Shown piece by piece: positions 53,337 to 64,000 of a stretch of 64,000 nucleotides of DNA; position 1 is the first letter of the stretch, and the number at the start of each line of letters is the position of its first letter. A program made the translations under genes and the position numbers. Below the pieces are notes generated by a model. It saw only the letters and a list, made by a program, of their open reading frames with translations. It was not told where the DNA came from and made no database searches. This stretch comes from Candidatus Parcubacteria bacterium (GTDB lineage Bacteria; Patescibacteriota; Patescibacteriia; CAIXNZ01), in NCBI GenBank assembly GCA_026395685.1, contig JAPLYG010000016.1:1035-65034 (forward strand), read 5' to 3'.

Positions 53337-53754
53337 AGGATTTTTAAAAATTATTAATCAAAAATACCATTTTATTATAACCTATTTTACTAACCGCATC
53401 AATTGTTGATAAGTCTTTTATTTTGCTGTAAACTATTAAAAAACAAATGCCTTTTAAAAATCCATTATTTTAATCCAATTATACTTAAACTCTGAGTAAA
53501 GAGCAACCTCACAAATATAATATACAATAAATGCTTTTATCTTGACAAAATAACTATTTTATGTCGTAAGTCAATATTCGCAAAAAATGACTTGACAATT
53601 ATTTACGAAGTTGCTAAGGTATCATATGGTTTAAATACAGAGGCCAAAGAGGCCGCGTACCTTTTTAATATATATAAGGCAAGGGGAGGCAAACAAAGAT
53701 TCAAAACAGCTCTGCATTGCGGAGCCAAACCGTCTGAAAAAGGAGACCTGACAG

Positions 53755-54924
53755 ATGAAGAAAATCACCGCATTCACGGCCATGGCGGTCATGATTCTCA
53801 TGACCATGCTCTCGGGCTGCACCAAGCCCGCCCCCGGCAACGGCAACAACCCCATCGGCGCCCAGCCCAACGACCCCCGCGCGTCCGAAATGACCGTCTC
53901 GTGGACCTACGACACCCCCGGCTCGCTCAAGTGGGAATCCGGAGACCTGACCCCCATCAAGGACAGCGACGACGGCCTCTGGAAAATGCTCTACGACCCG
54001 GCCGGCGTCAGCCCGACCGCCATTACCCCCGGCTTTCCGCCGGGCTACGTGGCCATCGGTGGTGACGCGATCAACCCGACCTGCAATAACCCGTACAACC
54101 CCGCGTGTCGGACGGACATCTCGTCCAACTGCACCAACGGCGTCTGCACGGCGTCCGTGAATCTGCCCATCGGCTCCTGGAACGGCATCTGGTTCTGGTA
54201 TGATGGTCAGGTACGCGTCGACCACATCACGCTTTCCGCCGGGACCCAGTCCTGGCCGCTCGTCAACTACTCCGTGATCGCCGGCGATACCGCTCCGACT
54301 ACCAATCCGCTGCACCAGTCCTGGGTCGCAGCCTGTGTCCGCATCGACAGACCCACGCCCACGACCATCGACGTCAACCGCGACGTCGCCAATAACGCCA
54401 GGTGCCAGGAAGTGATCTACAACATCGAAATCTGGGCCAACGGCGACTCCAGCGTGAACGTCCTCGACGACAAGTTCGTTCCCTGGAACGGTCTGCAGGC
54501 TCACGAAGGAGACATGAAGATCAAGTCAACGCTTCTGCCTCCGACCGTACAGTCCGGCAGTACCCTATTCCCGAGAATCGTGTGGAACACCAACGCGTAC
54601 ATCCACCGCATCTCGAGCGTGGCCGCTTCGAGTTCCTGGTGGCTCGCCTTCTACAGCCATGACCGGGGCGACACCGCGCCGCCCAATCTGCTGTCCCCGA
54701 TCCACGGCGGCGTGTCCATTCGCACCTACCGCTACGGCGCCGGCTGGGCCATCCCGACCACGCCCAACTGCACCACCGAGCTCCAGAACATGATCAACCT
54801 GAATACGATCAACCCGCTGCTCGAGCCATTCTACGTCCTGCAAGTGACGGGTATCAACACCACGTCCAACTGCGTCACCCAGGGCGTGGACACCCGAAGC
54901 CAGATCTTCGGATTCGCAAATTAG
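53755..54924 (+). CDS. High-GC lipoprotein of unknown function (lipobox LSGC), Cys/Trp/Pro/Thr-rich, compositionally foreign
   Basis: RBS AAAGGAG 9 nt upstream; 'MKKITAFTAMAVMILMTMLSGC' signal; GC ~65% with third positions almost all G/C versus ~33% GC flanks; two hairpins after stop. Confidence 0.6.
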   Translation: MKKITAFTAMAVMILMTMLSGCTKPAPGNGNNPIGAQPNDPRASEMTVSWTYDTPGSLKWESGDLTPIKDSDDGLWKMLYDPAGVSPTAITPGFPPGYVAIGGDAINPTCNNPYNPACRTDISSNCTNGVCTASVNLPIGSWNGIWFWYDGQVRVDHITLSAGTQSWPLVNYSVIAGDTAPTTNPLHQSWVAACVRIDRPTPTTIDVNRDVANNARCQEVIYNIEIWANGDSSVNVLDDKFVPWNGLQAHEGDMKIKSTLLPPTVQSGSTLFPRIVWNTNAYIHRISSVAASSSWWLAFYSHDRGDTAPPNLLSPIHGGVSIRTYRYGAGWAIPTTPNCTTELQNMINLNTINPLLEPFYVLQVTGINTTSNCVTQGVDTRSQIFGFAN

Positions 54925-55006
54925 GGGTTGCCTCCCCCTACTTGACCAAAAGCCCCAGGTACTTCGGTACTTGGGGCTTTAAAATTGATTTTTTAGGCTA
55001 ATATCT

Positions 55007-56275
55007 TTATTTTTTCAATAAAATTTCCAGAGCTTTATCCATTTGAGGATCTTTATCTTTATTAAAATCATCCGGTGTCAATTTTACTTCAATATCCGGT
55101 AAAATACCTTCACCATCTATTAAATTCTCGTGTGGAGTAAGCCATAAGGCAATTGTCAATTTAATTGAAGATCCATCGTCTAAGGGAAATATTGTTTGCA
55201 CAGAACCTTTGCCAAAACTTTTTTCGCCGATTAAAGTAGCCAGCTTATAATCCTTTAATGCGCCGGCAACGATTTCCGAGCCAGAGGCACTGCCTCCGTT
55301 AATCAAAACTACGGTGGGAAAATCTTTTAATCTGGCCTGACCAGTGCTTTTATTTTCCTTCAAACTGCCGTCGCTGGCTTTTTCATAAACCACGACTCCA
55401 TTTTCCACCCATTCACTCGTGACATTTATTGCAGTGTCCAAAAATCCGCCCGGGTTATTTCTTAAATCCAAAATAATGCCCTGGGGATTTTTTTGCACGA
55501 TTTCCATTACTGCTTTTTTAAATGCCGCATCAGTATCCTCATTAAAATAGCGTAATTCTAAATATGCGATATTATTATCCAGCATTTTCCATTTTACGCT
55601 TTCTATTTTAATCTTGGAACGGATTATTTTATATTCCTTGGGGTCGTTTATGCCGTTGCGCCCAATCAATAAATTTACTTCTGTGCCCTTAGGCCCTCTG
55701 ATTTTGCTGACTGCAAAATCTAAACTCATACCAGAAGTATCTGCGCCGTCAATAGCTAAAATTGTATCTCCGCTCAACAACCCGGCTTTTTCCGCAGGTG
55801 AATCGGGCAAGGGCGCGACAATGGTGATCTTATCATTTTTAACTGCTATTTCTGCGCCTATTCCTTCAAAATTACCTTTTAATTCTTCGGTAAATTCTTT
55901 GCTGGTATCCGGGTCAAAAAAAACTGAATGCGGATCGCCTAAAGCGGCAACACTGCCGGCCATAGCCCCATAAAAAAGCTCTGTTTCATTGACCGGCTGC
56001 TTAACATAATTATTTTCGATAATTTCCCAGGCATCCCAAAACAAATTAAAATTGACCTTATTGCTTAAAAAATCAGGCTTTGCTTTCTTATTAAAAACAA
56101 CTCCCATTTTTTCACCATCGACCGAATCACTCACTACTTTGTATGTCTGCCGTCCGGCAATTAGGCCTAAAATAAATGATAAAAAAATAAGCAATAAAAC
56201 AGCATAGAACTTAACAAATCGCCGAAAAAATTTTTTTTCAGATTTTGGCACATCTAAAAGACTTGGCCGTTCCAT
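55007..56275 (-). CDS. ctpA: C-terminal processing (S41, tail-specific) protease with PDZ domain
   Basis: PDZ 'AEKAGLLSGDTILAIDG'; S41 'LINGGSASGSEIVAGAL', 'GEKSFGKGSVQ'. Confidence 0.8.
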   Translation of the reverse strand: MERPSLLDVPKSEKKFFRRFVKFYAVLLLIFLSFILGLIAGRQTYKVVSDSVDGEKMGVVFNKKAKPDFLSNKVNFNLFWDAWEIIENNYVKQPVNETELFYGAMAGSVAALGDPHSVFFDPDTSKEFTEELKGNFEGIGAEIAVKNDKITIVAPLPDSPAEKAGLLSGDTILAIDGADTSGMSLDFAVSKIRGPKGTEVNLLIGRNGINDPKEYKIIRSKIKIESVKWKMLDNNIAYLELRYFNEDTDAAFKKAVMEIVQKNPQGIILDLRNNPGGFLDTAINVTSEWVENGVVVYEKASDGSLKENKSTGQARLKDFPTVVLINGGSASGSEIVAGALKDYKLATLIGEKSFGKGSVQTIFPLDDGSSIKLTIALWLTPHENLIDGEGILPDIEVKLTPDDFNKDKDPQMDKALEILLKK

Positions 56276-56437
56276 AAATTTTTATTATGAATAAAATATC
56301 CAATCCTAAAATGGACTTATTATATTAATATTAACAAAATTCTACGGAATTAGCAATCTTGATTTAATTGCACTCTTACGCTATAATCAAAACAATTATA
56401 TTATTAACATTTCTACCGTAACATTAACTAAATTTAT

Positions 56438-57817
56438 ATGAATTTAAAAACCAGGCGTATAATCATGTACAGTTTTATACTGGCATTTTTAATTTTAGCG
56501 CCGATAGTGATATTCTATTCTTCTGGCTACCGTTTTGATTTAAAAAGGCATCAAGTGCTCAAGACGGGCACTCTTTTTCTGGAAGCCAAAGAAATAAACA
56601 AGGCAAATTTATATGTAAATAACAAATTAATTGAAGATCCTTTTAGCAATAAAAAATATATTTATAACCTTTTACCCGGTGAATATTTGGTTAAATTATC
56701 GAAATCAGGCTATCACGACTGGCAAAAAAAAGCCATAATTTACAGCGGGCTGACCACTTTTATTAAAGATGCGATATTATTCAAAAAAGACGTTCCCCTG
56801 CAGATAGCGGATGGGAATATTTCCGAATTATATCTTTCACCTGATTCTTCTAAAATTGCCTACCTGGAAAAAAATGATACTTTTTCTGAAATATACCTTT
56901 TAGATCTATCCAGTAACAACACTGATTTAATTTATCGATTTACCAGTAAAGATCAAACAACAAGCTTAAGCTGGGCGGCAAGCAGCAAAAAAATAATGCT
57001 TAGTTATGACAGTACCCATATAATTATTGACACTAATAATCCGAAAAATATTTTTAGCCTTAACGCAGTTACCAATTTCAAAGCCCAAAATATTATCTGG
57101 GATATAAACAGCGACAATATTCTGTTCACGGAGTATCAAGACAGCATTTATCGCATAGATCTATACAATAAAAAATCAGAAAAGATATTTTCTTCGCCCG
57201 ATACCCAAATTAACCCGACGTTTTTTATTGAAGGCAATGATATTTTTTATATCTCAGAACAAATCGGCCAAAACAGCTTAAATAAATACAATCTCCAGTT
57301 TAAAACCGAGAAACAAATCATAGAATTAAGTAAAAACAGCAACTATAAGTTTATCAAGAGCACCAATAACTATTTAGGGCTGATTGATCTGGATCAACAG
57401 AATTTATTGCTTATTAAAAAGATAGATGCCGACTATGTTACTAGCCTCCAGAACCAAACTAAAAACTTTAATGCTAAGGAAGCTTTCTGGGATGATAAAC
57501 AGAATCAACTGCTCATTTATGATGATTTTGAAATTAAAATTTATAATACGGATGCTAATAAAGAACTTTTTATAAACCGCTATGGCAACCCCATTAAAAA
57601 AATAAGCTGGTATCCCGATCTGAGCCATCTATTAATTTTATTTGATAATAATATTGAAATAATAGATATTACCCAGGAAGTCGGGACAAGAAACTATATA
57701 GAAATTGCCAAATTTGACCAAATCTCAAATTTTGCCGTAACGCCCGACGGAAAAGCTGTATACTTTTCCGGCCAAATCGGCAAACAACAAGGTTTGTATC
57801 GTCTCAATCTGCAGTAA
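56438..57817 (+). CDS. Membrane-anchored PEGA-domain protein with repeat-rich C-terminal region
   Basis: N-terminal TM; 'NLLPGEYLVKLSKSGYHDWQKKA' PEGA-like segment. Confidence 0.5.
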   Translation: MNLKTRRIIMYSFILAFLILAPIVIFYSSGYRFDLKRHQVLKTGTLFLEAKEINKANLYVNNKLIEDPFSNKKYIYNLLPGEYLVKLSKSGYHDWQKKAIIYSGLTTFIKDAILFKKDVPLQIADGNISELYLSPDSSKIAYLEKNDTFSEIYLLDLSSNNTDLIYRFTSKDQTTSLSWAASSKKIMLSYDSTHIIIDTNNPKNIFSLNAVTNFKAQNIIWDINSDNILFTEYQDSIYRIDLYNKKSEKIFSSPDTQINPTFFIEGNDIFYISEQIGQNSLNKYNLQFKTEKQIIELSKNSNYKFIKSTNNYLGLIDLDQQNLLLIKKIDADYVTSLQNQTKNFNAKEAFWDDKQNQLLIYDDFEIKIYNTDANKELFINRYGNPIKKISWYPDLSHLLILFDNNIEIIDITQEVGTRNYIEIAKFDQISNFAVTPDGKAVYFSGQIGKQQGLYRLNLQ

Positions 57818-57876: not shown

Positions 57877-58593
57877 TTATTTTAATTTTGACTCAGCCCA
57901 AATACTGGCGCGCAATAATTCCGTATAATTATCAACATCAAACCAATCCCCTTCCAGCAATCCATAGCTAAGCTGATTATTCCGCAGATAATAGTTATTA
58001 ACATCAATCAATTCCAATTCACCTCTTAATGAAGGTTGTAGGCTGGGAATTACCTGCCAGACTTGCTTGTCATAAAAACTTAATCCCGTAACGGCCAAAT
58101 CGCTTTTTGCTGAAAACGGCCGATCTTCAAACCCGGTAATTTTCTGGTTCTCAATTTTGGCAACAGTGAATAATTCAGGCCGGCTTACGCTCTTTAATAA
58201 TATTTTGGCGCCACTGCCGTTGTTTTCATAATCGGAAACATCATTAGAGATATCAGATGCAAAAATATTATCTCCAAGTATCATGGCAATTTTTTGCTCC
58301 TGCGCAAAAGCCTGCCCCAAGCCCAAAGCCTGAGCAATGCCCCCGGCTTCTTTCTGGACACCAAATTCGAAATTTATCTCGGGGAAATAATGGGGATTTA
58401 ATAATTTTTTAAATTGCTCAATGCTTTCTTTGCCCGTAACCACCATGATCTCGCGGATGCCTGCCTTGGTTAAAGTTTCAATCGGATAATAAACCATCGG
58501 CTTATTAAAAACCGGCAGAAGATGCTTATTTATTACCGCGGTGCAAGGATACATGCGCGATCCCATGCCGCCGGCTAAAATTATTCCCTTCAT
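57877..58593 (-). CDS. RmlA-like glucose-1-phosphate nucleotidyltransferase (short form), paralog 1
   Basis: 'MKGIILAGGMGSRMYPCT'. Confidence 0.65.
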   Translation of the reverse strand: MKGIILAGGMGSRMYPCTAVINKHLLPVFNKPMVYYPIETLTKAGIREIMVVTGKESIEQFKKLLNPHYFPEINFEFGVQKEAGGIAQALGLGQAFAQEQKIAMILGDNIFASDISNDVSDYENNGSGAKILLKSVSRPELFTVAKIENQKITGFEDRPFSAKSDLAVTGLSFYDKQVWQVIPSLQPSLRGELELIDVNNYYLRNNQLSYGLLEGDWFDVDNYTELLRASIWAESKLK

Positions 58594-59315
58594 ATGATTA
58601 AATTTTGATGCAATTTTTCCTTGGCTAAGTTCTGCGCCCGCAGCAAACTGTCAAAAGTACCGGCATCAATCCACTCCCCCTGTACCAAAGCGACTTCTAG
58701 TTCCCCTTTTTCTAAATACCAATTATGCAAATCAACAATCTCCAGTTCATTGCGCTGGCTGGGTTTCAGATTTTTAGCAACTTCAACTACACGATGATCA
58801 TAAAGATAAAGGCCGGTAACAGCATAGTCACTTACCCACTCTTTAGGCTTCTCCACTATTTTTTCAGCTTTCATCCTGCTGTCCATTTTTACCACTCCAA
58901 ACCTTTCCGGATCTGTTACTTTTTTGGCAAAAACTTTAGCGCCGCTTTTAAAATTTTTAATATCTTCGCTAAAATCATCCTCGAAAATATTATCGCCTAA
59001 AATCATGGCCACATTTTCCTGGTCGATGAAATTTTCACCGATGATAAATGCCTCAGGCAATCCGCCCGGCTTGTCCTGGATTTCATAGGTAAATTTTACA
59101 CCGAACTCTTTACCGCTGCCCAAAAGATTAAGATAATCACCCGCTCTTTCCGGTGAGACAATTATTAAAATCTCCTTGATTCCCGCCTTGATCAAAGTAT
59201 TTAAAGGATAATAAATCATCGGCCGATTATAAATCGGTAAAAGTTGTTTGCTGGTAATTTTGGTGCAGGGACGCAGCCTGGTAGCTGCTCCGCCTGATAA
59301 GATTATTCCTCTCAT
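58590..59315 (-). CDS. RmlA-like nucleotidyltransferase, paralog 2 (tandem)
   Basis: 'MRGIILSGGAATRLRPCT'; 4-bp overlap with paralog 1. Confidence 0.65.
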   Translation of the reverse strand: MRGIILSGGAATRLRPCTKITSKQLLPIYNRPMIYYPLNTLIKAGIKEILIIVSPERAGDYLNLLGSGKEFGVKFTYEIQDKPGGLPEAFIIGENFIDQENVAMILGDNIFEDDFSEDIKNFKSGAKVFAKKVTDPERFGVVKMDSRMKAEKIVEKPKEWVSDYAVTGLYLYDHRVVEVAKNLKPSQRNELEIVDLHNWYLEKGELEVALVQGEWIDAGTFDSLLRAQNLAKEKLHQNLII

Positions 59316-59327
59316 ATTTTTTAAATT

Positions 59328-60185
59328 TTAATCATTAACCTTTAATTCTAAATATTCTCTTAAAGCCTCCTCCCAATTTTTCAAAGGAGGCAATTTACTG
59401 TTAATCAAAGCTGAGTGAGCCGGACGTTTTGCCGGTCTCAGAAATTCAGAGGATGCGCAAGGCTCTACCATAACTGCTAAATGAGCCAGTTCAAATATTT
59501 TTTGAGCAAAGTCATACCAGGAGATGCCGCCTTCTTTTGTTTCATTAGTTGCATGATAAACGCCAAAAGCTAAATTATTACTTAAAATATAAACTATTTG
59601 TTTGGCCAAATCAAGTGCGCTCGTCGGCTTGCCGAATTGATCATTTACAACCTTTATTTCCTTCTTATCTTGTCCCAATTTCAGCATGGTTTTCACGAAG
59701 TTATTGCCGTTTTTGCCGTAAAGCCATGATGTTCTGATTAAATAATATCGGTCACTGATATTCTGCAAAGTTTTTTCGCCTAAGAGTTTGGAATCACCGT
59801 AGAAATTAACCGGGCCGAACTCTTTAGAATCCTCAGCATAGCCTTTTTTATTTTGACCATTAAACACATAATCCGTAGAAATATGAACCAGCACCGCACC
59901 GCATTTTTTGGCAGTCAAAGCCAGATAGCCGACGGCCTGATTATTTACCTGCAAAGCCAGGTCTTTTTTCATCTCGCAATCATCAACTGCAGTAAAAGCC
60001 GCGCAATTAATAATTATCTCGGGCTTTAACATGGTGATTTTATCATTAACCTGATTATGATCAGCAATATCTATTTCTTCACGGTCCCACAAGGTGGGCT
60101 TTTGGTCGGCTAATAAAACTGCCAATTCCGATCCCAACATTCCCTTGGCTCCCAATATTAAAATTTTTTTATTATTCTGTCCCAT
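59328..60185 (-). CDS. rmlD: dTDP-4-dehydrorhamnose reductase
   Basis: 'ILILGAKGMLGSEL' NAD(P) loop, 'YHATNETKEGGISWYDFA' RmlD motif. Confidence 0.8.
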   Translation of the reverse strand: MGQNNKKILILGAKGMLGSELAVLLADQKPTLWDREEIDIADHNQVNDKITMLKPEIIINCAAFTAVDDCEMKKDLALQVNNQAVGYLALTAKKCGAVLVHISTDYVFNGQNKKGYAEDSKEFGPVNFYGDSKLLGEKTLQNISDRYYLIRTSWLYGKNGNNFVKTMLKLGQDKKEIKVVNDQFGKPTSALDLAKQIVYILSNNLAFGVYHATNETKEGGISWYDFAQKIFELAHLAVMVEPCASSEFLRPAKRPAHSALINSKLPPLKNWEEALREYLELKVND

Positions 60186-60254
60186 GCATTAAATTTAGCT
60201 CAAATAGCAAATTTCTGCAAATAAAAAACCCCAAAATGCACAAACACTTCGGGG

Positions 60255-60605
60255 CTAGTTTTCTGTTTTTTTCTGTTGCTCATAAAGCTCCAGCGTCATC
60301 TTAAGCCTTAGAGTCTGCCAAAACTCCGCAAGTTTTGGGAAATCATTTTCAGCCTTGGTAATATTCTGGTGAGCCTCCTCGGGAGTGGAGTAAAGGAAAC
60401 TGATGGTAAAAAGAATGCCATTACTCATTGGCAAATCTTGCGCTAAATCATATAGACAGGAAGTTATTCCTTGCAGGTATCCGGCATTTATTAAAGATCT
60501 AAGATAGCGATAAAGCATGCAAAACTCTTTTTCAGTAAAATGTTCATTTAAAGAACTAAGCTGCAGGGTAATTTTAGCTTTCAGTTCAGCTGTGAGCTGC
60601 ATCAT
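60255..60605 (-). CDS. Hypothetical protein (116 aa), divergent from plus-strand operon
   Basis: ORF only. Confidence 0.35.
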   Translation of the reverse strand: MMQLTAELKAKITLQLSSLNEHFTEKEFCMLYRYLRSLINAGYLQGITSCLYDLAQDLPMSNGILFTISFLYSTPEEAHQNITKAENDFPKLAEFWQTLRLKMTLELYEQQKKTEN

Positions 60606-60658
60606 GTGAAATCCCCCTTTATTAGATGTATATTTTATGATACCCTATATTTATAAGC

Positions 60659-60703
60659 TTGTCAATATAAGGAGTTGACAAATCTTATTTTTTATGTTAG
60701 TAT
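60659..60703 (+). promoter_or_regulatory. Sigma-70-like promoter (TTGACA 60675-60680, 17-bp spacer, TAGTAT 60698-60703) overlapped by palindrome TTGTCAA-N9-TTGACAA (60659-60681)
   Basis: Read directly; palindrome half-site coincides with -35 box. Confidence 0.45.
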
Positions 60704-60733
60704 ATAGTATAAACCTACTAATTAGCTAAATTT

Positions 60734-61363
60734 ATGGACAATAAAAATATCCCTACTTTCGCACTTACCTCAGCTAGCACAAATATTGCTTCCCAGGCAA
60801 TTGTATTAAATTTTGATAAAATATTTTCCGATGAACAAGAAAAACACAAAGAAATTGGCAAAGAAAAAACTGGGGATTTAAGAACTTTCAAAACAACTAA
60901 AGAATTACTCCATGAATTTGAGGGACAAATGACTAGCTGGCCAATTGAAAATTTTCCCTCTTTTATTGAATTTACTAAAAAAATGATCGGGGACAAGTCA
61001 CAGGAATTGTTTATGGATGATTTTGCTTTTTCTCAACAAAAAGCCTGCCAGGCTCTGATTAAAAAAATTGAATCTTATTTCTCAAATTTACGAATCAAAA
61101 CAATGGAAAAAGGTAAAATCGTAACAAGCTTAAATACGGATAAAGTCCTACCTGAGACTTTGGCTAACTATAAAAAATATCTTATTTTGGCACTAAAAAC
61201 TACAAATGAAAGAATAGCCCTCTTTAAAAGTGAAATTGAAATGGCGCAGAACAATAATGATCCGACAAATGAAAGCAAATTTAATTATGCTTATCTTGAA
61301 GATCTTGCGACAAAATCTGATGCAGGCAACTTATTAAAAGAATTAATTCTTACTAAAACTTAA
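60734..61363 (+). CDS. Hypothetical protein (209 aa)
   Basis: ORF downstream of promoter/operator; no motif recognised. Confidence 0.4.
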   Translation: MDNKNIPTFALTSASTNIASQAIVLNFDKIFSDEQEKHKEIGKEKTGDLRTFKTTKELLHEFEGQMTSWPIENFPSFIEFTKKMIGDKSQELFMDDFAFSQQKACQALIKKIESYFSNLRIKTMEKGKIVTSLNTDKVLPETLANYKKYLILALKTTNERIALFKSEIEMAQNNNDPTNESKFNYAYLEDLATKSDAGNLLKELILTKT

Positions 61364-61375
61364 ATTTGCTCAAAT

Positions 61376-61936
61376 ATGCCTCAATATGAAAGAGAAGATA
61401 AAGAAACTCCTCAATCCGCCTTAAAAAAAATGCTTACTTTTGAGGATCAATGGCTACCGAAAGATAGGCTAGCACAAAAAGGCAACCAACTTTTAAAACA
61501 AATAAATCGAACCCGGGACGTAAACGGTGAATTTTCGCCGGAAGCTGTCGGGAAAATTGAACGAATTATTCAGGTATTTGAAGAAAATATAGATAAAATA
61601 TATAATAGTGGAGAGGCTACCGAGCTAGTGAATCAAGACAAAATGAAACTTTATAATTTTGAAAAAGTTCGAGCCCTGTCATTTTTACCCGATGAAGCAA
61701 TCCCGGCGCTCGAAGATGAAATAAGAAAATCAAAAAATGATTTTAATAAAATGCAAGATCTGCAAGCAAATATCGGGCTGATAATGCAGTATTGGCAAAA
61801 CCAATTACGAGTCATAAATTTAAAGGAAATTCCGACAGAACAAGACAGAAGGAGAGAAGATAAACTAAAAGATAAGCTCGTTGAGCTGCAAAAATTACTT
61901 TTTAAAAATTTTCCTAAGGAATCAAAACAATCATGA
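61376..61936 (+). CDS. Hypothetical coiled-coil protein (186 aa)
   Basis: ORF; charged heptad-rich sequence. Confidence 0.4.
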   Translation: MPQYEREDKETPQSALKKMLTFEDQWLPKDRLAQKGNQLLKQINRTRDVNGEFSPEAVGKIERIIQVFEENIDKIYNSGEATELVNQDKMKLYNFEKVRALSFLPDEAIPALEDEIRKSKNDFNKMQDLQANIGLIMQYWQNQLRVINLKEIPTEQDRRREDKLKDKLVELQKLLFKNFPKESKQS

Positions 61937-62091
61937 ACTCTAAACAACAAAAACTTTTACTAATCCTAAAAAGTCTTAGATCAAAGCTGGCGCTGATCCG
62001 CCGACAGGTTCTTGCAGATAAAAAAGGGCAGGAATCCGTTGATGCGCAAAAGCAGGCAGCTGATCTGCGGGCAAAAATAAAAAATCTTTAA
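61933..62091 (+). CDS. Small cationic amphipathic-helix peptide (52 aa), translationally coupled (ATGA overlap)
   Basis: ATG overlaps upstream stop; 'KLLLILKSLRSKLALIRRQVL'. Confidence 0.3.
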   Translation: MNSKQQKLLLILKSLRSKLALIRRQVLADKKGQESVDAQKQAADLRAKIKNL

Positions 62092-62100
62092 CCAAAAATT

Positions 62101-62199
62101 ATGACCTCAAACAAACAAAATTGCCAAAAAATCGCCAAAGTTCTCAGCAAATTCAAAACCAAACTGATGAAAATAAGAACTAAGCTACTTAATTCTTAA
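62101..62199 (+). CDS. Second small cationic peptide (32 aa), paralog-like to the 52-aa peptide
   Basis: 'IAKVLSKFKTKLMKIRTKLL' shares pattern with preceding peptide. Confidence 0.25.
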   Translation: MTSNKQNCQKIAKVLSKFKTKLMKIRTKLLNS

Positions 62200-62214
62200 A
62201 TATAATATAAATAT

Positions 62215-62676
62215 ATGAACCGACCACAAGCAGAAAAAAAGCAGGCACAGGAAACAATATTTTTAAAACCAGGTGAAGATTTTGACCAGCAACTGGCAAA
62301 ATTGCTTGGAGAATTTGAGTCTGAAACGAGAGAGACCGTTGAACTAGTTGACCCGACAAACCCAAAGCATAGAAAACAGCTGGGGGAAATTTCCTTGGCC
62401 CTTAAAGAAGCAGAAAATGAAGTGGATAAACTTGATTTTGACGAATCATTAGATGCAAGAAAAAAACTTAAGCAATTGGCAACAAAATTAAGAAAACTTC
62501 AGCAGCTACAGGCGGAAGAAGACCAACTCCAGGCACACATTGAACAAACCAATAAAAATCTCAAGAGCAGACTCAAGGGAGACCCCACAGACCCTCTACG
62601 CATAAGAAAAAGATCGTTAGAACAGCAATTACAAAAGGTAAGGGGAGCAATCAGCGAAACCCGACAGGCAATATAA
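62215..62676 (+). CDS. Hypothetical coiled-coil protein (153 aa)
   Basis: ORF; K/E/Q-rich heptads. Confidence 0.4.
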   Translation: MNRPQAEKKQAQETIFLKPGEDFDQQLAKLLGEFESETRETVELVDPTNPKHRKQLGEISLALKEAENEVDKLDFDESLDARKKLKQLATKLRKLQQLQAEEDQLQAHIEQTNKNLKSRLKGDPTDPLRIRKRSLEQQLQKVRGAISETRQAI

Positions 62677-62697
62677 ATATTAAAAAGGACGAAGTTT

Positions 62698-63183
62698 TTA
62701 CTCCGTCTTTTTTAGTATCTTGGTAATCTTTTTAATAATATTTCTGCTTTCCATGATTCTACGATGGTGATAATCAAGCAAAATAAACCAAACAGCCACT
62801 ATGATGCCGAGGGAGTCAATAAGCACGTCGCGATAAGTGCCTACCCTGCCATAAATAAAAGTCTGATGATACTCATCGGAAATCGCATATAAAAGCGTAA
62901 AAACAAAACTCCAAAATATATCCCAGTAAATATGCCTCTCTTCTGTCTGATGCAAAATCCTGAAAATCAAAAAGGTCAAAACAGCATATTCAAACATATG
63001 GGCAATCTTTCTGATTATAAAAGTGTACAAGTCAAAACCGCCTAAAAAGCCCAGGGATTGATTTGATAAATAATATATGGCCAGCATCCAGAGAATCAAA
63101 CTGACATACTTTTCATATTTCTGAAAATGACGATGATTTATCAGATTTAAAATTGCAGATTTAAAATTATTGACTATTTTCAT
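62698..63183 (-). CDS. VanZ-family membrane protein
   Basis: 'HMFEYAVLTFLIFRIL...YAISDEYHQTFIYGRVGTYRDVLIDSLG' matches VanZ-like signature. Confidence 0.6.
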   Translation of the reverse strand: MKIVNNFKSAILNLINHRHFQKYEKYVSLILWMLAIYYLSNQSLGFLGGFDLYTFIIRKIAHMFEYAVLTFLIFRILHQTEERHIYWDIFWSFVFTLLYAISDEYHQTFIYGRVGTYRDVLIDSLGIIVAVWFILLDYHHRRIMESRNIIKKITKILKKTE

Positions 63184-63184
63184 A

Positions 63185-64000
63185 TTAGATTTTTTTATAA
63201 TTTTCTACAAAACCTTTGCCTAAAAGCGGTCGCCACCAGCTTTCATTTTTAACATACCAATCAACAACCTGATCAATGCCCGCTTCAAATTCAATTTCAG
63301 GCTGCCAACCCAGTTCTGCTCTTATTTTAGTGGTGTCTAATAAATAACGACGATCATGACCAGGACGATCCTCAACATAGACTTTTAAGGTTTCAGGTTT
63401 ATTTAAACGTCTTAAAACTGCTGCGGCAATTTCTTCAACGCTTTTTTCCACTCCGCTGCCAATATTATAAGCTTCGCCGACCTTTCCTTTCTTTATGATT
63501 AAATCAATGGCCTTGCAATGATCTAGAGTATGCAGCCATTCCCTTCTGTTCTGACTGCTCTTAAACAAAGGCAATTCCTGATCCTGCAAAGCATTAGTCA
63601 CAAATCGAGGAATTACCTTTTCAGGAAACTGATAAGGGCCGTAATTATTAGCGCAATGGCTAATTGTTATCGGGAGCTTAAAAGTATGGTAATAAGCCAT
63701 AACTTCGTGATTAGCGCCGGCTTTAGAAGCGTTATAGGGGGTTTTAGGCATGTATGGGTCTTCCTCCTTAAATGAGCGTTTTTCCTCCAATGCCAAATCT
63801 CCAAAGACCTCACAAGTAGAAATATGATGGAAACGATCAACCCCGGCGTCCTTAGCCGCCTCCAAAAGCATCTGAGTGCCCAAAACATTAGTTTTAACAA
63901 AGATATCAGGCTCAACCATAGCCCGTCCATTATGAGATTCAGCCGCAAAATTTACCACGACATTAATTTTTTCATCGTTAAACAACTTTTTATTTCGCTC
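63185..64000 (-). CDS. rmlB: dTDP-glucose 4,6-dehydratase (C-terminal ~270 aa; N-terminus beyond window)
   Basis: 'YNASKAGANHEV' YxxxK, 'HISTCEVFGDL', 'CANNYGPYQFPEKVIPRF'. Confidence 0.8.
   Translation of the reverse strand, partial: ERNKKLFNDEKINVVVNFAAESHNGRAMVEPDIFVKTNVLGTQMLLEAAKDAGVDRFHHISTCEVFGDLALEEKRSFKEEDPYMPKTPYNASKAGANHEVMAYYHTFKLPITISHCANNYGPYQFPEKVIPRFVTNALQDQELPLFKSSQNRREWLHTLDHCKAIDLIIKKGKVGEAYNIGSGVEKSVEEIAAAVLRRLNKPETLKVYVEDRPGHDRRYLLDTTKIRAELGWQPEIEFEAGIDQVVDWYVKNESWWRPLLGKGFVENYKKI

Follow-up and report, generated by a model that had tools for sequence, protein, structure and literature searches.

A lineage-restricted cluster of predicted helical protein genes between rmlD and vanZ in Candidatus Parcubacteria

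Genes and transcription signals of the block

The DNA analyzed here, hereafter the window, is a stretch of 64,000 nucleotides from a metagenome-assembled genome (MAG) contig of Candidatus Parcubacteria (locus tags NTZ49_044xx; GC content ~35%). A block of six small genes (60255-62676) is located between rmlD and the vanZ-rmlB pair. It is composed of A116 on the minus strand and B209, C186, D52, E32, and F153 on the plus strand, and all six open reading frames (ORFs) listed in an earlier interpretation made from the letters alone (the sequence-only reading) are present. The block is almost certainly no recent insertion but a fast-evolving cluster, confined to one lineage, that is inherited vertically and has gained and lost genes. 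Its genes are the following.

60255-60605, minus strand: A116, 116 residues, acidic, five helices, one motif resembling a tetratricopeptide repeat (TPR); family A; own transcription unit
60734-61363, plus strand: B209, 209 residues, soluble, helical; probably a divergent member of family T2
61376-61936, plus strand: C186, 186 residues; family T1; predicted compact seven-helix bundle
61933-62091, plus strand: D52, 52 residues, basic (+9), helical; long form of family S; C-terminal KIKNL
62101-62199, plus strand: E32, 32 residues, basic (+9), helical; short form of family S
62215-62676, plus strand: F153, 153 residues, charged, probably coiled-coil; final gene of the operon

The stop codon of C186 overlaps the start codon of D52 in an ATGA sequence (61933-61936). 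This overlap had been noted in the sequence-only reading, and it is kept in the closest relative, a 1.7-kb contig (L098). In the NCBI annotation, five of the six proteins are hypothetical, and the exact sequence of the 32-residue E32 is not in the protein collection. Searches of the six proteins against Pfam, NCBIfam, PHROGs, and PADLOC found nothing at a meaningful level, which is in line with the earlier statement that none has a recognizable domain. Particularly, no sugar-nucleotide enzyme family of Pfam or NCBIfam matches any of them, and homology to the dTDP-L-rhamnose pathway was not found. The six proteins contain neither transmembrane segments nor signal peptides, their maximum Kyte-Doolittle(19) value being at most 1.02, compared with 2.11 for VanZ. 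In addition, a scan of the block against Rfam at E<=1 found nothing, and nothing about these genes emerged from a search of the literature on rhamnose and the cell wall in Parcubacteria.

The following signals are located in and next to the block.

60675-60703, plus strand: promoter of the B209-F153 operon, TTGACA (60675)-17 nt-TAGTAT with a TG extended -10; from a consensus scan
60637-60665, minus strand: promoter of A116, TTGACA (60665)-17 nt-TATCAT, 11/12 consensus positions; from a consensus scan
60659-60681: palindrome, TTGTCAA (60659-60665)-N9-TTGACAA (60675-60681)
60227-60256, minus strand: intrinsic terminator of A116, a 13-pair stem followed by a T run, separating A116 from rmlD
62688-62707: hairpin shared by the convergent genes F153 and vanZ; putative bidirectional terminator

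The scan found the last hairpin on the minus strand only, and its plus-strand form (aaaaaggacg..cgtctttttt) was read by eye. Hairpins equivalent to the A116 terminator follow the A-like genes in the related loci L001, L089, L086, and L096. Together, these predicted signals show two independent transcription units: A116 alone, which has a terminator to itself, and the packed operon of B209, C186, D52, E32, and F153, which runs to the hairpin shared with vanZ. The sequence-only description of an operon of uncharacterized small proteins, including two strongly basic amphipathic peptides, is supported.

The TTGACA/TAGTAT promoter and the palindrome overlapping it are both present as described earlier, but their reading as a repressor-operator layout is not supported. 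The palindrome coincides exactly with the -35 hexamers of two divergent, back-to-back promoters, each extended by its seventh A, and TTGACAA(T) is the usual form of the -35 box elsewhere in the window. Back-to-back GTCAA/TTGAC boxes, each with a suitable -10, recur in relatives, where the homologous TTGAC-N17-(TG)TATAAT operon promoter is conserved. The gap between the two -35 boxes is 9 bp in the window, L001, L003, L092, and L093, 3 bp in L086 and L089, and 13 bp in L087, and only one of the two boxes is present in L002 and L094. A dimeric repressor site would keep the spacing of its half-sites, whereas two independent promoters need not. Moreover, when the 128-bp intergenic region is shuffled, a 7-bp perfect inverted repeat with a spacer of up to 20 bp arises in 37% of cases. 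A palindromic operator is not supported because its half-sites are -35 boxes, their spacing varies, such a repeat is common by chance, and the TPR-like A116 lacks a DNA-binding domain; accordingly, the layout does not appear to hold an autoregulatory operator of the kind found in type II toxin-antitoxin (TA) operons.

The same observations bear on the possibility that the block is a regulatory module, in which A116 would control the divergent operon or rmlD-rmlA, via the palindrome or by sequestering a factor. Such a role would fit the divergent arrangement with an inverted repeat in between, the position of A116 directly upstream of rmlD, and the fact that TPR proteins can be regulators. Beyond the arguments against an operator, however, A116 has its own terminator and rmlD a separate promoter-like motif, and three relatives (L081, L099, and L100) carry a T1 or T2 gene without any A gene. 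We regard this possibility as quite unlikely.

The slot between rmlD and vanZ in related genomes

Pfam matches and similarity to annotated genes of relatives confirm the flanking order rmlA-rmlA-rmlD and vanZ-rmlB that had been proposed from the sequence.

57877-58593 and 58590-59315: two rmlA paralogues on the far side of rmlD; similarity to Pfam-annotated genes of relatives
59328-60185, minus strand: rmlD; Pfam match
62698-63183, minus strand: vanZ; Pfam match
63185-63985, minus strand: rmlB, following vanZ; similarity to Pfam-annotated genes of relatives

Also located beyond rmlD are the genes of a PEGA/beta-propeller membrane protein (hyp459) and the S41 peptidase CtpA (ctpA).

Relatives were reached through RmlD and VanZ and through the few matches of block proteins. 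Direct scans of C186 and F153 against genome and metagenome collections found no relatives. The sole match of B209 in 5.8 billion proteins is itself, C186 has just four relatives in 1.84 billion representative proteins, and the family A profile finds only eight proteins in 5.8 billion. Within the reach of each contig, the order rmlB-vanZ-slot-rmlD-rmlA(-rmlA)-hyp459 is the same in L001, L003, L081, L086, L087, L089, L092-L094, L096, L099, and L100, and in L092-L094 hyp459 is followed by murA and ctpA as well. The related MAGs are labeled Falkowbacteria (L001; placed by NCBI in the Parcubacteria group), Uhrbacteria (L002), and Buchananbacteria (L092), and the other loci include metagenome contigs. 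Every related locus retrieved holds homologous genes in the same slot, which is 1.2-3.6 kb long in relatives and contains very divergent genes in variable combinations.

A + T + D + E + F (full set): window, L001, L002/L094
B-C-D-E-F: L098, whose contig ends inside the B gene, so that an A gene is not visible
T2 + D + E + F: L081
A + T2: L003, L092, L093, L086, L089
A + 285-residue protein: L087, L096
T1 alone: L099, L100 (RmlD 78% and 74%)
Empty, with 66 bp between vanZ and rmlD: L090, a more distant relative (VanZ 48%)

Each occupied slot holds one helical protein of about 190 residues (T1 or T2) or the unclassified 285-residue protein of L087/L096. The T1 (C186-like) and T2 genes, which encode helical proteins of ~145-205 residues, are divergent from the A gene or rmlD. 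The family A genes always adjoin rmlD and run in the same direction, including the eight family members found in related loci. D, E, and F are found only as a closely packed trio, and both this trio and the A protein have been gained and lost among relatives. All C186 relatives with visible context are located in the same slot. Moreover, among 11,426 ORFs from 1.55 Mb of sequence (the window plus 100 loci), the profiles of the four families A, T1, T2, and S find slot ORFs only.

These results settle much of the proposal that the block is an inserted accessory module, possibly derived from a phage. Since the slot content varies among relatives and the L090 slot is empty, the lineage must have gained the block at some stage, and this part of the proposal stands. 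A phage-derived or otherwise mobile insertion interrupting the rml operon would also be compatible with the plus-strand operon running opposite to its flanking genes, and with a nominal match of C186 residues 43-98 to phrog_5567 (E=5.7e-5, 23.8 bits), a phage family whose function is not known. That link, however, was not confirmed in 2.9 million viral contigs (IMG/VR), which contain no relative of the C186 family, or among the viral structures of BFVD. No PHROG family of known function was matched significantly, no integrase was found, no tRNA lies within 37 kb, and no direct or inverted repeats flank the block. Its GC content is like that of its neighbors, its promoters use the -35 consensus of the host (TTGACAA), and the same families fill the same slot across MAGs with three different labels. 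A recent mobile insertion is already largely refuted, and we consider a phage or mobile origin extremely unlikely. The block is an old, vertically inherited cluster, as argued by the conserved slot, the restriction of its families to this slot, and the lack of any sign of mobility. The sequence-only reading had named an orthologous block with an assignable housekeeping function, conserved in position across the lineage, as the finding that would speak against an inserted module; the conserved block is found, but no housekeeping function can be assigned to it. The comparison of the rmlD-rmlB interval among related genomes, suggested in the same reading, thus gave a filled slot of variable content, with L090 empty.

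The genes of the block diverge rapidly. Between the window and L001, RmlD is 76% identical and C186 only 31%. L098 contains orthologues of all five plus-strand genes, which compare with those of the window as follows (dN/dS, ratio of nonsynonymous to synonymous substitution rates).

B209: 41% identity, dN/dS 0.24
C186: 58% identity, dN/dS 0.18
D52: 62% identity, dN/dS 0.29; ATGA overlap kept
E32: 44% identity, dN/dS 0.43; same 32-residue length and same C-terminal NS
F153: 30% identity; dN/dS not estimable, dS being saturated

The estimated ratios show purifying selection on the block genes, pointing to fast evolution under constraint. In the window, B209 is in the same reading frame as C186, and a second frame is common to D52, E32, and F153. 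An origin of this arrangement as a pseudogene or by stop read-through was rejected through L098, where the B/C and F frames differ while all ORFs are kept, so that the shared frames of the window are a coincidence. The D52-E32 junction aaaaataaaaaatctttaaccaaaaattATG (62062-62103; L098 ~1100-1131) is identical in nucleotides between the two loci, while the flanking coding sequence is only 67-72% identical, and it may be a conserved termination-reinitiation signal for the 32-residue gene.

Several observations concern the surroundings of the block. The tandem rmlA (glucose-1-phosphate thymidylyltransferase-like) copies have only ~40% mutual identity, and the pair is kept in L001, L003, L092, and L093. 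RmlB of the window is ~91% identical to the versions of L081/L089 and only 45-50% identical to those of L001, L003, L092-L094, L099, and L100; RmlD, unlike this split pattern, is 66-78% identical to those same loci. The pattern suggests that two distinct rmlB alleles or paralogues have been exchanged at one position. In L092-L094, a murA-type gene (EPSP_synthase family, ~418 residues) lies between hyp459 and ctpA. Because these two genes are just 163 bp apart in the window (56275-56438), murA is no longer at this position there, through either relocation or loss.

A plus-strand gene at 53755-54924, in a GC-rich island (~53500-55000), encodes a predicted lipoprotein of 389 residues with the lipobox LSGC and no Pfam match. 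Its GC content is 62%, and that at third codon positions (GC3) is 0.86, compared with 0.27-0.38 in neighboring genes. Homologues at the same position after ctpA in L093, L089, L001, and L003 are GC-rich too, and the GC content of the homologue is 57% in L092 (GC3 0.71) and 52% in L093, against ~33% for those loci. Since homologues at the same position share this composition, an assembly chimera or recent transfer was ruled out; the gene stays far above genomic GC across the lineage.

Shine-Dalgarno-like sequences precede only 9/56 long genes of the window. Many starts (e.g. 60734, 60185, and 56438) are instead preceded by an A/T-rich motif such as (g)CTAAATTT, at a distance of 0-6 nt from the ATG. 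The genes of the A116 family differ in having a strong AAGGAGG in most relatives and aaagggggat in the window, which suggests that the organism may use two modes of translation initiation.

Families and predicted folds of the block proteins

The AlphaFold model of A116, obtained with an eight-sequence alignment, is composed of five helices and has a predicted local distance difference test score (pLDDT) of 94.3 and a predicted template modeling score (pTM) of 0.85. Residues F23, L51, G63, L65, F89, P90, and W96 are invariant in family A. The best Foldseek matches of the model in the PDB are TPR domains (3rkv, RabGGTase alpha, Fis1, PelB, and AIPL1; probability ~0.9, E>0.2, template modeling score (TM-score) <=0.55), and the best PDB sequence match of the family profile is the consensus TPR protein CTPR3 (E=0.029). 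Pfam, including its TPR families, gives no match at E<=1. The G/L...F-P...W signature occurs in a single motif, whereas TPR proteins normally have tandem arrays, usually of three or more 34-residue helix-turn-helix repeats forming a superhelix. A116 is TPR-like in its predicted fold, but by sequence profile it falls outside strict TPR membership. Furthermore, searches of Pfam, NCBIfam, and PDB profiles found no helix-turn-helix or other DNA-binding domain in A116.

Like the small TPR adaptors and chaperones (Fis1, FKBP-type TPR domains, and class II type III secretion chaperones), A116 is small and all-helical, and the conserved positions G, L, F-P, and W agree with a single TPR-type helix pair. 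It differs from these adaptors in its single recognizable repeat, in having no Pfam TPR match, and in structural matches that are not significant. Unlike the TPR chaperones, A116 has no associated secretion system or known client. It nevertheless adjoins small helical proteins that could be its clients, which resembles the settings of TPR chaperones.

C186 is predicted to form seven helices (pLDDT 85.9, pTM 0.81). No match to this model was found in the PDB or BFVD, with TM-score <=0.35 among the top-ranked matches. The residues invariant in C186 and family T1 are P2, K29, R47, K89, P105, N132, Q138, W140, N142, Q143, K163, and several Leu/Ala. They include no His, Cys, Asp, or Glu, which argues against a metal or acid-base enzyme. 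B209 matches the T2 core motif weakly (hidden Markov model E=0.0014; hhalign E=8.7e-4, probability 23%) and is, judged from these scores, probably a divergent T2 member. Homology between T1 and T2 was not supported by hhalign (E=0.34). Proteins of both families often start with MPxFE-like residues.

This conserved N-terminal motif could be a recognition signal if the block encoded fast-evolving proteins for host interaction or interbacterial conflict, acting as effectors or immunity-like binders of an episymbiont and residing in a hypervariable slot. The rate of divergence, much faster than in the flanking genes, and the gain, loss, and duplication of members within the slot are also in keeping with such proteins. 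On the other hand, the dN/dS values are well below 1, no signal peptide or known secretion signal was found in the proteins and no secretion genes nearby, and the families are restricted to one slot, unlike typical polymorphic cassettes. A role in conflict is therefore considered unlikely.

D52 and E32 belong to one family (S) of small basic peptides, as the sequence-only reading had proposed. E32 is found at E=2e-5 by a family S profile built without it. On this profile evidence, E32 is a genuine gene that the annotation lacks, paralogous to the N-terminal half of D52. D52-like peptides ending in KIKNL or KIENL are present in L001, L002/L094, L081, and L098, and short-form S genes are located at the E32 position in L081, L001, and L094. 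The net charge of the S peptides is +4 to +17 in every genome, while the A proteins are acidic and the T and F proteins neutral to acidic. Conservation within the family falls on hydrophobic residues that are spaced 4-3-4-3 and flanked by Lys.

Both peptides are hydrophilic, with grand averages of hydropathy (GRAVY) of -0.50 (D52) and -0.57 (E32), and their maximum Kyte-Doolittle(19) values of 0.80 and 0.05 compare with the 2.11 of VanZ. Their hydrophobic moments are 0.41 (D52) and 0.58 (E32) at a mean hydrophobicity of ~-0.08, values which presumably fall below the Eisenberg surface boundary. Neither peptide shows the hydrophobic or surface-seeking helix of a type I toxin or membrane-active peptide. 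An assignment of D52 as ribosomal protein uL29, suggested by its hairpin of helices with G-Q and a basic helix at the C-terminus, was dropped, as neither Pfam nor the PDB supported it.

The peptides are central to the earlier suggestion of a toxin/immunity-like module. In a TA or toxin-immunity cassette, the cationic D52 and E32 would act as toxins, on the membrane or in another way, and be neutralized by a helical neighbor. The block resembles type II TA operons in its small, tightly coupled genes (ATGA) and in a promoter overlapping an inverted repeat; its genes have no assigned function, its peptides are strongly basic and amphipathic, and gene content of the slot varies among relatives. 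In contrast to these operons, the repeat consists of -35 boxes at variable spacing, the slot is fixed, and neither a toxin fold (RelE/ParE, MazF, PIN, HipA, or Doc) nor a DNA-binding, antitoxin-like domain was found by Pfam, NCBIfam, and PADLOC among the six proteins and their homologues. There is no significant match to a TA, defense, or immunity family (Pfam, PADLOC), no transmembrane helix in the peptides (GRAVY ~-0.5), and no catalytic-type invariant residue. Moreover, the families are confined to one inherited chromosomal slot rather than scattered or mobile, several loci hold a T protein alone without any peptide, and the genes are under purifying selection. Toxicity as the function of the block is very unlikely.

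F153 has only weak, coiled-coil-type library matches, e.g. to SMC/Rad50 coiled coils and the MvaT dimerization region, and the only PADLOC matches in the block are its sub-threshold coiled-coil matches to LmuB (E=0.011). Counterparts by position but with no detectable similarity are present in L001, L094, and L081. Heptad periodicity reaches modest significance in E32 and F153 (p ~0.04) and is borderline in C186. The term coiled-coil used in the sequence-only reading therefore applies only in part, C186 being predicted as a compact bundle.

The weak matches of F153, together with the conserved positive charge of the S peptides and the strong promoter, would also agree with a nucleic-acid-binding, ribosome-associated, or nucleoid-associated role, in which D52 and E32 bind RNA or DNA and the larger helical proteins serve as partners or chaperones. 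No ribosomal, histone-like, or RNA-binding family match was found, however. The conserved residues of the S peptides are hydrophobic heptad positions, which fits helix packing instead, and many genomes that have retained the T gene possess no S genes. This role is improbable.

The S peptides can be compared with heterodimeric acid/base coiled coils, such as bZIP-type zippers and designed E/K coils. They share the 3-4 hydrophobic spacing, flanked by Lys/Arg, and the strong positive charge, which would disfavor self-association and favor pairing with a less basic helix. Unlike those coiled coils, to which they have no sequence relationship, their candidate partners in the window are near neutral.

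A possible helical assembly and its role

Tentatively, and with confidence short of even, we interpret the block as a vertically inherited cluster encoding a non-enzymatic, hetero-oligomeric assembly of helical proteins, possibly linked with the cell envelope. Because transmembrane segments, signal peptides, and invariant His, Cys, Asp, or Glu are lacking, we infer that the products are soluble and non-enzymatic, and it is plausible that they act by helix-helix binding of one another. The strongly basic S peptides would use their 3-4-spaced hydrophobic residues to dock on helical T, F, or A proteins that are neutral or acidic, with the TPR-like A protein acting as adaptor or chaperone. The assembly might then serve the organization of the cell-envelope glycopolymer or wall. 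The cluster is strictly linked with the dTDP-rhamnose genes, vanZ, the PEGA membrane protein gene, ctpA, and, in relatives, murA. This linkage weakly suggests, as a speculation, a role in the envelope or the rhamnose glycopolymer rather than in defense, toxicity, or transcription control.

The nearest known pattern appears by analogy to be a variable cassette in a conserved polysaccharide neighborhood, here filled with helical binding proteins. As in surface-polysaccharide loci, conserved sugar-nucleotide genes (rmlB, rmlD, and rmlA) bracket a variable slot. The content is different, the slot encoding small soluble helical proteins instead of glycosyltransferases, polymerases, or flippases, and its genes are homologous across genomes and are not swapped for unrelated cassettes.

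Several points weigh against the proposed assembly. No experiment or homology ties any block protein to a function, and the assembly is deduced only from composition, heptad spacing, and operon packing, with a heptad periodicity that is only marginally significant. The T and F proteins of the window are near neutral and not acidic, which weakens simple acid-base pairing; the T2 membership of B209 is weak, and the F153-like proteins have no detectable similarity across loci. In addition, the envelope link is one of neighborhood only: the whole region is syntenic in these small genomes, and the linkage may be historical. A more specific form of the assembly, a previously undescribed, Parcubacteria-specific complex of T1/T2, S, F, and A proteins acting, for example, as a cytoplasmic scaffold or cytoskeleton-like adaptor tied to the building of the rhamnose glycopolymer or wall, with C186 as a new fold and E32 as a true subunit, is doubtful.

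No function is known for about half of the genes in candidate-phyla-radiation bacteria, whose genomes commonly encode uncharacterized lineage-specific proteins. Families A, T1, T2, and S are new in the sense that they have no relatives among described families or solved structures. What the locus offers is a well-delimited cluster of unassigned proteins rather than a demonstrated new mechanism: four new families found only in one conserved slot beside rhamnose and wall genes, confident models for two of the proteins, and an unannotated gene of 32 codons. To our knowledge, almost nothing is known about the organization of the envelope in these tiny episymbionts, and an envelope-linked assembly, if true, would be a lineage-specific piece of their cell biology. 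If it is not, the slot still shows very fast protein evolution under purifying selection within a rigid gene order.

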